DNA of 64,000 nucleotides from a virus (taxonomy: Duplodnaviria; Caudoviricetes): IMG/VR virus record IMGVR_UViG_3300032317_000216, positions 64,641-128,640 of that record; one strand, 5' to 3'. The translations under genes and the position numbers were made by a program. Numbering within the stretch: position 1 is the first letter of the stretch; every line of letters begins with the position of its first letter. This document shows positions 2,400 through 59,652 of the stretch, piece after piece. Under the pieces are notes generated by a model. The model was not told the origin of the DNA and searched no databases. It was given only the letters and a program-made list of their open reading frames with translations.

Positions 2400-3134
2400 A
2401 TGAGAATTGCCATAGTAGGATCTGCTTGTCAGGGTAAGACAACTCTTGCAAATGATTTTATCAAAAACTGGCCTGCTTACAAACGGTCCAAAGAAAGCTA
2501 TAGACAATTAATTAAAAAAGACAAAATTAAGATTAACAAAAATGTAGATAGTGATGGTCAGTGGAAAATTCTTAATAGCTTGATTGATGATCTTCAGAAC
2601 ACAGAAAAAACTGATAAGCTTATTTTCGATAGATGCCCACTTGACAATTTAATATACTCCATGTGGAGTTTTGATAAACAGAAATCTGATATAGATAAGG
2701 AATTCATCGACAAATGCATACCTCTTGTGTGTGAGAGTATGCGTCATTTGGATATTATATTTTTTATTCCTATTACTAAGGTGGCTACCGTAAAGATAGA
2801 AGAAAGAGAATTAAGAGAAGTGGACAAATCATTCATTGAGGAGATTGATAACATATTCAAAGCAGTGCAGCGTTCCTATTATACAGGAAAATCACCCTTC
2901 TTTCCCAAGGATGATTCTCCTGCAATAATTGAAGTGTTTGGTTCACCAGAAGAGAGAATTAAAATGATAGAGCTGTATCTTAATAAAGATGGAGAACTAC
3001 ATGGCGAAGAAGAGAGTGTATTAAATCCTGAGAATCTGGATTACATGGAAACATTGCTTAAAGCACAGAAGCAAGCAAAAGAACAAGAAGAAGAAGAAGT
3101 AAGATTGAGAAAAAAATACCTTTTTAATAAATAA
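2400..3134 (+). CDS. P-loop nucleotide kinase-like protein (AAA_28/NadR-like)
   Basis: GSACQGKTT Walker A and FDRCPLD motif. Confidence 0.75.
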   Translation: MRIAIVGSACQGKTTLANDFIKNWPAYKRSKESYRQLIKKDKIKINKNVDSDGQWKILNSLIDDLQNTEKTDKLIFDRCPLDNLIYSMWSFDKQKSDIDKEFIDKCIPLVCESMRHLDIIFFIPITKVATVKIEERELREVDKSFIEEIDNIFKAVQRSYYTGKSPFFPKDDSPAIIEVFGSPEERIKMIELYLNKDGELHGEEESVLNPENLDYMETLLKAQKQAKEQEEEEVRLRKKYLFNK

Positions 3135-21753: not shown

Positions 21754-21779
21754 ATAGATATTTAAAAGATTTAGTATAT

Positions 21780-21787
21780 CATAAATA
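21780..21787 (+). promoter_or_regulatory. T4-like late promoter (representative of many (T/A/C)ATAAATA / CATAAGTA sites)
   Basis: CATAAATA 7 nt before the portal ATG; similar motifs precede gp15, gp13, gp21, 28570, 41333, 51088, 52167, 53248, 55888 and 59759. Confidence 0.75.
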
Positions 21788-21794
21788 ATACTAT

Positions 21795-56611: not shown

Positions 56612-58822
56612 ATGCCAAGTTATTATTTTAAAATTCCAGCTCTTATAAAAACGAATTACGGTGTAATTAATTACAATCGCTTAAATCTTACTGTCGCTTC
56701 AACACTAACTTCTTCAACTGGATTGACAGCCAGTACTTGGTACGACACTGATAGAATTCAATATCAGCTTAATCCCACTCTATCTGCAGGTCAAGTTGCT
56801 AAGGTGCTGCCTGCTGCATTTCCGTTTGTCACATCAGCTTATAACATTTCACTTGGTTTACCAGGTCTTAAAGTAAGCGCTAAAAGAAACAAGATACCCA
56901 TAACTTTTTATAATAGCAGTACCAGAACATATACTTACAGTGGATCACCCGATTTCAATTATTTTTACCCTTCATTAAGAACTCGCGTATTTTATAAAAA
57001 TATACCCAAAGATGTTACCATTACATCAATCAATTCAAGTGCAAAAACATTTCGTACATCTACTGATGCATGGAAGTATAATATAGCTAGCAATAATTTC
57101 TTTAATAATGATTTTTATGCTCTTGACCAAACAGTAGAAGCTACAGATGACACTGCAGGTACCTGGAAACTATTTCCATACTATAGAGTTGATGCGCTAG
57201 AAAAAAACACTCTCAATAAGTTCTATAAAAGAATATTGCAATCCCCTGTTATAGGTGTCAAGCGGGACACTACTTACAATCAAACTGCTTCATTTACTGT
57301 GCCTTTTGCATTATATTATAAGATAGATTATTATGTTGATAGATTTTTTATACCAACCACAGAAGAACAACGACGATCCAATCAAAGCAATCCTGCTGGC
57401 AGATTGATTTACGATAAAAGTGTTTCATTTATTGATTATAAACTCATAACTGTGCCATTGTCAACAGCAAATGTTTCTCTATCATCTTATAAAACAGTAT
57501 TATTACAATCTCAAACACCACCATTAGTGAACAGTGACATAAGAATTAACAGTAATTACATATTTAGCAACAATCAAGCATCAAGCTCTTCTATTGAATC
57601 AATTAATTGCTCTAGATATAATGATTTATCTGGCTCAAGCATTGATCATAAATTTATTACTCAGAAGATATACCCACTATCTGCAACTAATACAGGTATT
57701 AAGCACATATCTGCAGGCCCAGCTTTAAGCGCTTGGGGTGGATTTGATGCATCAGATGATCATGTAATTGTTTCAGATACCTTTAAGAATGAATTGCATA
57801 TCTATAGAATAGATAATACAACTAATGAGCCATTTTATGCTAATATTGTACCTCACACAATAGTAAAACCAGCATCATCTGTAAGAGGAATGCTCCAGAC
57901 ATCAATTTCAGGGTACGGCAGAAATTTGATCATTGATTCAAGATACAAGCGCAAAAATACACTTGACGTGGTGGCTAATAGTTATGTTGCAACTGTGAGT
58001 GGTAAGCGAACCAATGCAATTGAAGTTGCCACTCTATCTATTGCCAACAGTGCATATCAAAGAGAATTTCATATATTTGACTTTGAATATCCTCATTTAA
58101 GCTCCAATGCTGTGAGCGCAAATGAAATATCAAACATGTGCTTAATGTTAGACAATGAATCAATCACTGTATATACATCTTTAGTAGTAATAAGGCCCGG
58201 TGTTATATATAATGGTAATAAAGGCATAGTTGAAGTGTATGGTTGCAGTGCCAACACACCCATTAAATTATACAAAATAATAACTATTGCTGATACAAGC
58301 TTGAGTGCTGTGTCTGCAGCTGTTATAACAAACATTTGCACTGGTGAATTAGGAACATTTTGTTTTACAGTTTCATCCCCTTCAAATGCATGTGTTGAAG
58401 TTTATGATATTGATGCGCGTTCAACAGCCACATCAGCTGCATCCTTGACTGCTTTAAGTGGGGCGAAAACAACATTTGCATTTGAGTTATCAGCAGATAG
58501 AAAAGCATCTGTTTACAATTATGAAAATACAGATAATAGTTTTGGAAAAGCTATTTATTTTGATAATGCATTGGGATATGATCCATTCTTTGAAAACCAA
58601 ATTCTCAACACAAACCGTCTGTATGTACAGAATAATAATAAGACATTTATTTTTGAAGAGTTTCAAAATAAATTCATACCTCTTAACACAGTATCAGGCA
58701 ATTTTAATTCAATACGTGCGTACTTTAATGTGTTTTGCTCTCTTTCCACAGTAGCTACTAACTCACAGATATCTAAACATACAAATGTAAATTTATTATC
58801 TTCTTTTGAGTTGAAACAATAA
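56612..58822 (+). CDS. large hypothetical (probably virion) protein
   Basis: 736-aa Ser/Thr/Asn-rich ORF with LSA motifs like other structural proteins in this window. Confidence 0.6.
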   Translation: MPSYYFKIPALIKTNYGVINYNRLNLTVASTLTSSTGLTASTWYDTDRIQYQLNPTLSAGQVAKVLPAAFPFVTSAYNISLGLPGLKVSAKRNKIPITFYNSSTRTYTYSGSPDFNYFYPSLRTRVFYKNIPKDVTITSINSSAKTFRTSTDAWKYNIASNNFFNNDFYALDQTVEATDDTAGTWKLFPYYRVDALEKNTLNKFYKRILQSPVIGVKRDTTYNQTASFTVPFALYYKIDYYVDRFFIPTTEEQRRSNQSNPAGRLIYDKSVSFIDYKLITVPLSTANVSLSSYKTVLLQSQTPPLVNSDIRINSNYIFSNNQASSSSIESINCSRYNDLSGSSIDHKFITQKIYPLSATNTGIKHISAGPALSAWGGFDASDDHVIVSDTFKNELHIYRIDNTTNEPFYANIVPHTIVKPASSVRGMLQTSISGYGRNLIIDSRYKRKNTLDVVANSYVATVSGKRTNAIEVATLSIANSAYQREFHIFDFEYPHLSSNAVSANEISNMCLMLDNESITVYTSLVVIRPGVIYNGNKGIVEVYGCSANTPIKLYKIITIADTSLSAVSAAVITNICTGELGTFCFTVSSPSNACVEVYDIDARSTATSAASLTALSGAKTTFAFELSADRKASVYNYENTDNSFGKAIYFDNALGYDPFFENQILNTNRLYVQNNNKTFIFEEFQNKFIPLNTVSGNFNSIRAYFNVFCSLSTVATNSQISKHTNVNLLSSFELKQ

Positions 58823-59133
58823 TTACAGTTCTTTCTGATTACGATGGGGCAGTATACCCTTAGTTGATTTATATCACTTCTAGTTCTTACGCAACTTGTT
58901 CATCTGAACGTGTTTACGCATGATAGTCATTTGTAGCTACTGTCACCAGTAGGATCGGACTATATCTTCACCTGTTAAGGTGCCGGGGGCTCTGGCTGGT
59001 TATTAAGGCTTCCTGTGCCTCCAGTAGTCTCTACACCTTCATGAAAAGCGTTTCATGCTTGGCTCGGTATTTTCTCTTTTGAGGTTTCCACCGAATTCAC
59101 CCAGTCTCGTAATTAGAAAGAACTGTAATTATT
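58818..59133 (-). ncRNA. group I intron ribozyme, apparently circularly permuted (opened in L2)
   Basis: Minus strand contains P3 CUGGGUG/CCCCCGG, P4 UUCGGU/ACCGAG, P5, P6/P6a, P7 GAGACUA/UAGUCC, P7.1, P8 CACCU/AGGUG, J8/7 AAGAUA and P9 with GUGA loop; P1 and the 5' strand of P2 lie downstream of P9; 27-bp terminal stem. Confidence 0.85.
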
Positions 59134-59232
59134 TATTGCCATTATGCATTTAATCTGAATAATGCATTGATTTTTTTGAGCAGCTGCATGATTTACATAT
59201 GGAACCAGGTTATTCATTGGATAATTAATGTT

Positions 59233-59652
59233 ATGAACGCCTTAAATTCAAACAACATCATTGGTGTAACAACCAAATTAATCATTGATTCAGATGCATT
59301 TGCACTTGAGCTCAAGAACCAACATGTTGAAATTTATCTGGACATAGAATCTTATCAAAAAGACATACACTGCAGCTGCAAAAAAAGAATAGAAAAGTAC
59401 ATCTCCAGAAATAAAAAAGCAATCAAACAGTTTGTCACTAGCTTCTACAACAGCAACATCAAATTGCAAGCCACTATAAACCGCGTCATCAAGCAAAATA
59501 CCTATGTTTCGCTCAGAGGCAAGGTGGCCACAATCCACAACTCTGATAAAGCTTGGGAGAAGTTCTATCGCAAAATGGTCGCCGACAATTGTTATTTCAG
59601 AGGATATTCAGTGGTTGCAGCTGGCAATGAGCTAAAAATATACTTTGTATGA
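59233..59652 (+). CDS. hypothetical protein (CSC motif), paralog of 49636..50064
   Basis: DIESY...HCSC, GKVATI and FRGYSV...LKIYFV. Confidence 0.6.
   Translation: MNALNSNNIIGVTTKLIIDSDAFALELKNQHVEIYLDIESYQKDIHCSCKKRIEKYISRNKKAIKQFVTSFYNSNIKLQATINRVIKQNTYVSLRGKVATIHNSDKAWEKFYRKMVADNCYFRGYSVVAAGNELKIYFV

Follow-up and report, generated by a model that had tools for sequence, protein, structure and literature searches.

Group I introns of the T4 td type, which belong to subgroup IA, carry a P7.1-type insert, follow a 5' exon ending in GGGU with a U.G wobble, and end in AAUG. Permuted intron-exon (PIE) group I constructs were reportedly engineered by Puttaraju and Been in 1992 and, with T4 td, by Ford and Ares in 1994. 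In these constructs the 3' splice site comes first and the 5' splice site second, new ends are created by opening one of the peripheral helices, and the exon ends are joined by two normal transesterifications; the phage element described here has the same layout and would use the same two steps. Published natural cases of circular RNA from permuted group I introns are represented by a coral mitochondrial intron, with permuted group II ribozymes as a parallel. In corallimorpharian mitochondria, back-splicing of the group I intron ND5-717 starts from a permuted precursor and proceeds via a circular exon-containing RNA (Chi et al. 2019, PMC6545197); there the permutation arises from transcribing the circular genome around a giant intron and the ND5 mRNA is rebuilt (PMC6545197). 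Permuted group II ribozymes are free-standing bacterial genes with reversed splice sites, which produce small circles of poorly conserved sequence, and from this poor conservation the circles were argued to be by-products (Roth et al. 2021, PMC8637638).

In a literature search, no phage was found to have a natural permuted group I ribozyme. The element described here lies in the window, which is the whole 64,000-nt stretch of DNA that was analysed (positions 64,641 to 128,640 of the Caudoviricetes record IMGVR_UViG_3300032317_000216 in IMG/VR). Unlike the engineered PIE constructs, it occurs naturally, in a phage genome, and has its opening at P2 (its guide-first relatives are opened at the P1 loop); its exon is short and apparently non-coding, and its arms form a long helix of 16-27 bp. 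The P7.1-type insert, the GGGU with U.G and the AAUG end are common to it and the td-type IA introns (RF00028), whereas it interrupts no gene, is not accompanied by a homing endonuclease and has its splice sites reversed. Compared with ND5-717 it is a compact dedicated gene with a 72-nt non-coding product, and the likeness lies in natural group I back-splicing. The permuted group II ribozymes resemble it in layout, while they belong to another ribozyme class with branching chemistry and are not phage-borne.

Layout of the element and its relatives

Positions 58871-58927 (minus strand), which the initial annotation had predicted to be a 57-nt circle, are with a probability of about 0.78 the first 57 nt of a 72-nt exon in a free-standing, circularly permuted group I ribozyme that is opened at the P2 loop. 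The parts of the element are listed along the minus strand.

59126..59136, minus strand: conserved A/T-rich motif ATAAATAATTA, just upstream of the 5' arm and overlapping it
59107..59133, minus strand: 3' strand of the split P2 helix, the transcript's 5' arm (27-nt inverted repeat)
58936..59106, minus strand: group I catalytic core with P3, P4, P5, P6/P6a, P7, a P7.1-type insert, P8 and P9 (RF00028)
58928..58935, minus strand: ribozyme tail CUACAAAUG with the terminal guanosine G58928; 3' splice site 58928/58927
58856..58927, minus strand: exon, the 72-nt back-spliced (ring) RNA, ACUAUC...CUAAGGGU (RNA contigs and exon lengths in relatives)
58847..58859, minus strand: P1 hairpin, GGGU followed by AUACU-GCCC; 5' splice site 58856/58855 after GGGU, with guide G58850 pairing U58856
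58818..58844, minus strand: 5' strand of the split P2 helix, the transcript's 3' arm (inverted repeat and covariation)

A single group I core was revealed by Rfam in the whole 128.6-kb viral record (RF00028, 55.5 bits against a gathering score of 50, full model covered, minus strand 58936-59167), and all core helices from P3 to P9 are paired, several of them with compensatory changes. Besides this intron, no known RNA family was found by Rfam at E<=1 in 58600-59400. The core and the flagged segment are enclosed by a 27-nt inverted repeat (58818-58844 and 59107-59133, 96% complementary), which places the two strands of an opened helix at both transcript ends, as in a permuted intron-exon arrangement. 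On the side of the P2 3' strand, the stretch present in the RNA and kept as a helix is likely only about 59107-59124.

The P2 5' strand adjoins the stop codon of the plus-strand 736-aa gene (56612-58822). Both neighbouring long ORFs, 56612-58822 and 59167-59652, gave no family match and lie on the plus strand, with the element between and antisense to them. Thus no gene is interrupted by the element, and neither a homing endonuclease nor an interrupted gene was identified at this position. The usual intron order, with the 5' site upstream of the 3' site and a host gene rebuilt by splicing, was not found, since the order of the splice sites is reversed.

Relatives with the same layout were gathered by a core word and one metagenome scan. 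Two of them (L242 and L245) share the locus of the window's element and are near-identical to the window, and L243, also at this locus, is about 5% diverged. A second lineage is made of L009, L025 and L246, which are copies of one sequence, and a third of L244. In the alignment of the element 90.3% of cells are paired under the proposed group I structure, and pairs changed on both sides numbered 14, whereas shuffles gave 6.1 +/- 1.7 and slid controls 1-3. Pairing was maintained by compensatory changes in P2, P6a, P8 and P9, with the split P2 helix contributing 5 of the 14 doubly changed pairs (window against L009). L244 was misaligned at the split helix and has a 9-bp pairing of its own, ACUAUUGUG/CACAAUAGU, at the same junctions. 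Since its pairs covary and L244 has its own version, the split helix is a real P2 opened at its loop.

Other searches were carried out for copies and neighbours. The sequence pattern GGGTATAN{1,3}TGCCCCAT gave 103 matches in viral contigs, among which only the window locus and L009/L025 were real. No relatives were returned by a related-locus search with the 736-aa protein, and a search of the phage record for a second copy or antisense target of the exon matched only its own locus. In L243 (3826-3875) part of the P2 5' arm was lost and about 45 nt were gained just beyond it compared with the window; 12 perfect base pairs remain next to P1.

Splice sites and the joint in RNA

The 3' splice site had been placed after G58928, and this position holds: the exon contig in RNA starts at 58927, the junction contig resumes at 58926/58927, and G58928 is the terminal G of AAAUG. 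In every relative (A)AAUG or AGAUG stands directly 5' of the exon. The 5' splice site had been placed after U58871, while the real one follows GGGU at U58856, 15 nt beyond, because both the conserved P1 and the RNA contigs place it there. GGGU, 5-8 nt and GCCCC-AU directly before the P2 5' strand are kept in the window, L009 and L244. P1 is a small hairpin, GGGU/GCCC, with a U.G wobble (U58856/G58850) as its top pair, which is the hallmark of a group I P1.

In guide-first relatives the two strands of this helix are a guide that immediately precedes P3 and a site located 3' of P9. Its variants, GGGUC/GGCCC, GGGUG/CGCCC (L004) and GGAUC/GGUCC (Flavobacterium phage immuto and L026), are compensatory changes in which U.G is always kept. 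A P10-type pairing of the exon start with the P1 loop measures 5 bp in L244 (GCUUU/AAAGU), 3 bp in L009 (ACC/GGU) and 1 bp in the window; this short P10, together with a P1 of only 4 bp, is a weak point of the reading as a 72-nt ring. A lariat-capping (GIR1-type) ribozyme was also considered, since the pairing partner of the guide lies 3' of the core. Such a ribozyme carries out one-step branching that leaves a 3-nt lariat, and it has neither exon ligation nor P1, so it was ruled out by the conserved P1 with its U.G wobble and by the exon-exon junction in RNA. A 20-nt direct repeat (58887-58906 and 58914-58933, minus strand, 70% identity) gives the loop of the exon hairpin a second CAGAUG/A at 58901-58906, which resembles the CAAAUG/A of the 3' splice site; it is lost in L243, and no RNA contig uses it.

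The locus was found in freshwater metatranscriptomes, and three RNA runs and one DNA run were compared over 58600-59400. Four contigs of RNA run X9 bear on the splice sites.

Record 5: 73 nt, depth 41, positions 58855-58927
Record 6: 59 nt, depth 19, letters 1-30 on 58884 to 58855 and letters 31-59 on 58926 to 58898
Record 7: 215 nt, depth 34, positions 58898-59112 (core, 3' site uncut)
Record 4: 374 nt (285 within 58600-59400), depth 7.5, from 58884 down past 58600

Read in the RNA sense, record 6 joins GGGU (58856) to A(58927)CUAUC with a one-base A ambiguity, so that a joint of the exon's 3' end to its own 5' end is present in RNA, in one run and at the level of contigs instead of reads. 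Since record 5 spans 58855-58927 and record 6 joins 58856 to 58927, the product is 72 nt. The automated list of joints was empty, as record 6 has 30 and 29 letters on its two sides, which is below the 31-letter rule. The strain in X9 resembles L242, its differences from the window being at 58865 and 58870. Logan assemblies use k=31, and the 30-letter overlaps among the X9 records are what would be expected when a k=31 graph includes both a ring and its precursor; a monomer ring and linear head-to-tail products of trans-splicing would give the same contigs. The other two RNA runs, X15 and X20, yielded precursor-type contigs only and no joint, and no contig joining 58871 to 58927 was present in the compared runs.

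The element RNA was expressed above its surroundings. No RNA was found at 59113-59274 though the DNA contig spans 58717-59367, thus DNA carry-over does not explain the RNA signal. The junction contig had a depth of 19 against 7.5 for the contig crossing the uncut 5' site, a rough comparison with one depth figure per contig.

RNA contigs from three studies end at 59100-59112, while the DNA contig continues to 59367, giving a weak hint that the RNA 5' end lies inside the P2 arm. The motif ATAAATAATTA is invariant in the window, L009 and L244, even where it lies outside P2, and it may be a promoter at 59126..59136, for which this conservation gives weak support. No sigma-70-type promoter for the element RNA was found on the minus strand. 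In the window 17 motifs like ATAAATAATTA were counted against 8.2 expected, and most of them stand 1-13 nt before start codons (for example 23585, 25159, 41333 and 8058, with 47056 and 48698 on the minus strand). Because the motif mostly directly precedes start codons across the window, its role as a specific promoter is in doubt.

From standard group I behaviour a two-step chemistry may be proposed. The transcript would run from the P2 3' strand through the core (P3-P9), G58928, the exon with its terminal GGGU and the P1 loop with the guide GCCC to the P2 5' strand. Free guanosine would cut after U58856, which forms the U.G wobble with G58850, then the freed 3'-OH of this U would attack after G58928 and join the exon end to its own start. 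The products would be a 72-nt ring, a ribozyme fragment of about 200 nt and a 3' tail.

The exon, its fold and the mini-ORF

The features of the exon are as follows.

58871..58927, minus strand: first 57 nt of the 72-nt exon, the segment of the initial annotation
58888..58920, minus strand: two-tier hairpin, UGCGUAA/UUGCGUA (with G.U pairs), an internal loop and GUUC-AGAU-GAAC (MFE and centroid folds)
58880..58921, minus strand: 13-codon mini-ORF MRKHVQMNKLRKN*
58857..58870, minus strand: exon linker, formerly placed in the intron (variation within the clade)

The 57-nt string from 58927 to 58871 is exactly as quoted earlier. The idea of a circle proved partly right, since a back-spliced RNA exists and the segment is part of its exon, while the size is 72 nt and the junction is U58856/A58927 instead of U58871/A58927. 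Exon lengths in the window and its relatives are 72, 72, 71, 72 and 66 nt, and the exons of the three lineages are not alignable with each other; alignment of the exon across homologues, which had been proposed as a check, thus found the length kept (66-72 nt) and the sequence not kept. Within the window's clade the linker is the most variable part of the exon: L242, L245 and the RNA strain carry A58870G and A58865U, and in L243 these changes are accompanied by the loss of 1 nt at about 58871-58872. An exon block GAUAUAAAUCA in common with L244 was dropped as a candidate, because most strains of the window's own clade carry GAUAUGAAUCU. A tRNA-like or permuted-tRNA exon was also dropped, ARAGORN giving no match on the doubled 72-nt or the doubled 57-nt sequence.

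The GUUC-AGAU-GAAC hairpin is present as described. The two UGCGUAA copies said to flank it exist at 58914-58920 and 58887-58893 and are conserved in the near-identical clade only; in the MFE fold they pair with each other via G.U wobbles, which lengthens the central hairpin to a stem of two tiers. A 7-mer repeated within 57 nt is not rare by a rough estimate, and UGCGUAA as a repeated binding site was rejected, with 5 copies in the window against 4.97 expected. In L243 only the tetraloop of the hairpin was changed (AGAU to GACA), that is all four loop bases and no stem base. L009 has a two-tier hairpin of unrelated sequence (UUCAG/CUGAA and UAGCUU/AAGCUA) at exon positions 8-39, in the same place, and in family members with exons of 18-26 nt the hairpin is the entire exon. 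Judged from the sequences compared, the central two-tier hairpin near the 5' end is the sole exon feature with comparative backing, and it probably holds both splice sites close together. The exon is predicted to fold no more stably than chance: z was -1.29 for the 57-mer (20 of 200 shuffles folded as well), -1.65 for the 72-mer and -1.21 for the same ring re-opened at another point, the re-opened sequences being folded as linear.

The complementarity of GUGAUA and UAUCAU could be confirmed (58877-58872 with 58925-58920, 6 bp with one G.U), while the pair lies away from the real ends of the exon. It had been taken as independent support for the splice sites, which failed, since L243 has its indel in the GUGAUA (3') arm and loses one base there, L009 and L244 are without the pairing, and the predicted fold ignores it. 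The ligation junction was likewise not found in a hairpin loop as proposed: UAUCAU/GUGAUA would enclose an 18-nt loop that holds the joint, and the predicted folds do not use this pairing.

The 13-codon ORF MRKHVQMNKLRKN* is present at 58921-58880, while its frame is not conserved outside the near-identical clade. It remains uninterrupted in L242 and L243, whose exons match that of the window almost throughout, and the L243 version MRKHVRQNKLRKN differs from that of the window in two codons; both changes are non-synonymous (QM to RQ) and fall within the RNA tetraloop alone, a pattern that would reflect constraint on the RNA and not on coding. The L009 exon has no AUG, L244 has an unrelated 22-codon frame crossing the joint, and no stop-free frame runs around the 72-nt ring in any of the three frames. 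The purine-rich AGAAGUGA had been expected upstream of the ORF after circularisation, and with the real junction it falls at least 30 nt upstream of the AUG. The real joint places UAAGG about 8 nt upstream of the AUG; UAAGG is itself a piece of the conserved P1 site, and the genes of this phage begin after A/T-rich, SD-less sequence. By a rough hand estimate such an ORF is not rare in A-rich sequence. The ORF is probably incidental, a product of chance, and the ring would most likely be a small non-coding RNA that resists exonucleases and whose sequence is specific to each lineage.

Genomic context and the possible role of the ring

The portal protein of L025 is 99% identical to that of the window. 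In L025 a permuted ribozyme of the L009 type with a 66-nt exon (2640-3019) lies directly upstream of the portal gene, while none is present at the counterpart in the window (21754-21794). The 736-aa protein (window 56612-58822, plus strand) and a 776-aa protein of L025 (312-2642) are 44% identical over the full length and belong to no known family, and in both genomes the element adjoins the 3' end of this gene, sharing its strand in L025 but not in the window. The opposite orientation would possibly fit an inversion between the 27-bp arms, and the arrangement in L025 and the window suggests that the element and its exon move as a module. Next to these homologous genes, and with portal proteins 99% identical, the W-type (window) and L009-type exons are yet not alignable.

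The wider family takes several forms. Sister ribozymes in L007, L010, L012 and L022 are ordinary introns in a ribonucleotide-reductase-like gene, where an upstream ORF (YGKEDLIVL.RKYNKYNALRLELGEF) runs into the core and an AAUGCNC/GNGCAUU-AAUG pairing, which covaries (GCGC, GCAC/GUGC, GCCC/GGGC), seems to replace the P9 hairpin. The ribozymes of L017, L004, L021 and L028 are guide-first, and their cut site GGGUSAA(A)UG adjoins the start of a conserved ORF (..RVSNP.SLIDTDFEYSLQ..); GGAGG lies about 250 nt upstream, before the ribozyme, so the cut would leave a nearly leaderless mRNA. In L011, L014 and L027 a near-consensus promoter-like site (TTGACA-17-CATACT) directly follows the cut site, thus these elements end one transcription unit. 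In a cultured phage, Flavobacterium phage immuto (L002:1437-1700; MW353175.1, about 145030-145290), the stop codon of a gene is immediately followed by a guide-first relative, with P1 GGAUC/GGUCC, an exon of about 18 nt and then an intrinsic-terminator-like hairpin, and GenBank has a 44-aa 'hypothetical protein' annotated over its ribozyme core.

Different readings of the locus can be weighed against these data. It is very improbable that 58871-58927 makes a 57-nt circle, with its junction in a 3-nt loop of a GUGAUA/UAUCAU stem and a splicing-gated 13-codon message. Its complementary hexamers and its ORF do exist, the latter open in L242 and L243, but the RNA junction is 58856/58927 with no contig joint of 58871 to 58927, the conserved U.G of P1 sits 15 nt further on, and the stem is hit by the L243 indel in its GUGAUA arm and is missing from the predicted fold. 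Against the message stand also the L009 exon without AUG, the unrelated frame in L244, the non-synonymous changes of L243 within the tetraloop, the lack of a stop-free frame round the 72-nt ring, and the SD-less, A/T-rich gene starts of the phage. Decay is likewise unlikely, if less so, that is, a selfish or decaying td-type intron remnant with no role in the phage, of which the junction RNA would be residual ribozyme activity. Such a remnant would agree with the lack of an interrupted gene and of a homing endonuclease and with the different loci of the element in phages whose portal proteins are 99% identical, whereas compensatory changes keep P2, P6a, P8 and P9 paired, the locus is the same in L242, L243 and L245, RNA is expressed above the surroundings, and a free-standing element could not be preserved through the rescue of a host gene.

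For the permuted ribozyme with a 72-nt exon, the use of the ring is a separate question. It is a serious possibility, though short of even odds, that the ring is a by-product and that the useful part is the cut itself, the ribozyme that stays on a transcript end, or the 3' tail, which extends in antisense into the 736-aa gene. Some family exons of only 18-26 nt are too small to carry much, many members lie directly after the stop of a structural gene or cut a few nt before the next start codon, and the exon shows no sequence conservation from one lineage to the next; Roth et al. argued likewise for the permuted group II ribozymes (PMC8637638), and the point tells also against a sequence-specific role of the ring. 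On the other hand, the element of the window clade is opposite to both neighbours with an apparent RNA 5' end of its own, and a sense gene that it could process is absent downstream; all three lineages keep their exons at 66-72 nt, although these are not alignable with each other, and the junction depth is 19 against 7.5 at the uncut 5' site, by the rough comparison above. A somewhat more doubtful idea, held tentatively, is that the ring might be the purpose of the gene, a promoter-driven ribozyme whose exon would be exchangeable cargo; acting on a partner from the host or the phage, the ring would be a decoy, a sponge or an antisense RNA, directed for example at a host defence. In the window clade this would fit the antisense position with a seemingly own RNA 5' end, the conserved exon length, the ribozyme kept intact by compensatory changes, and its free-standing state, with no host gene to hold it in place.

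RNA engineering relies heavily on permuted group I introns for making circular RNA; here a phage carries a compact natural version. The joint found in environmental RNA fixes the true splice sites and the product size, and it separates the real constraints, which are the hairpin, the GGGU site and the length, from the end pairing and the ORF, which are not constraints. The role of small RNA rings in phages can now be tested, in vitro or in a cultivable relative, Flavobacterium phage immuto.
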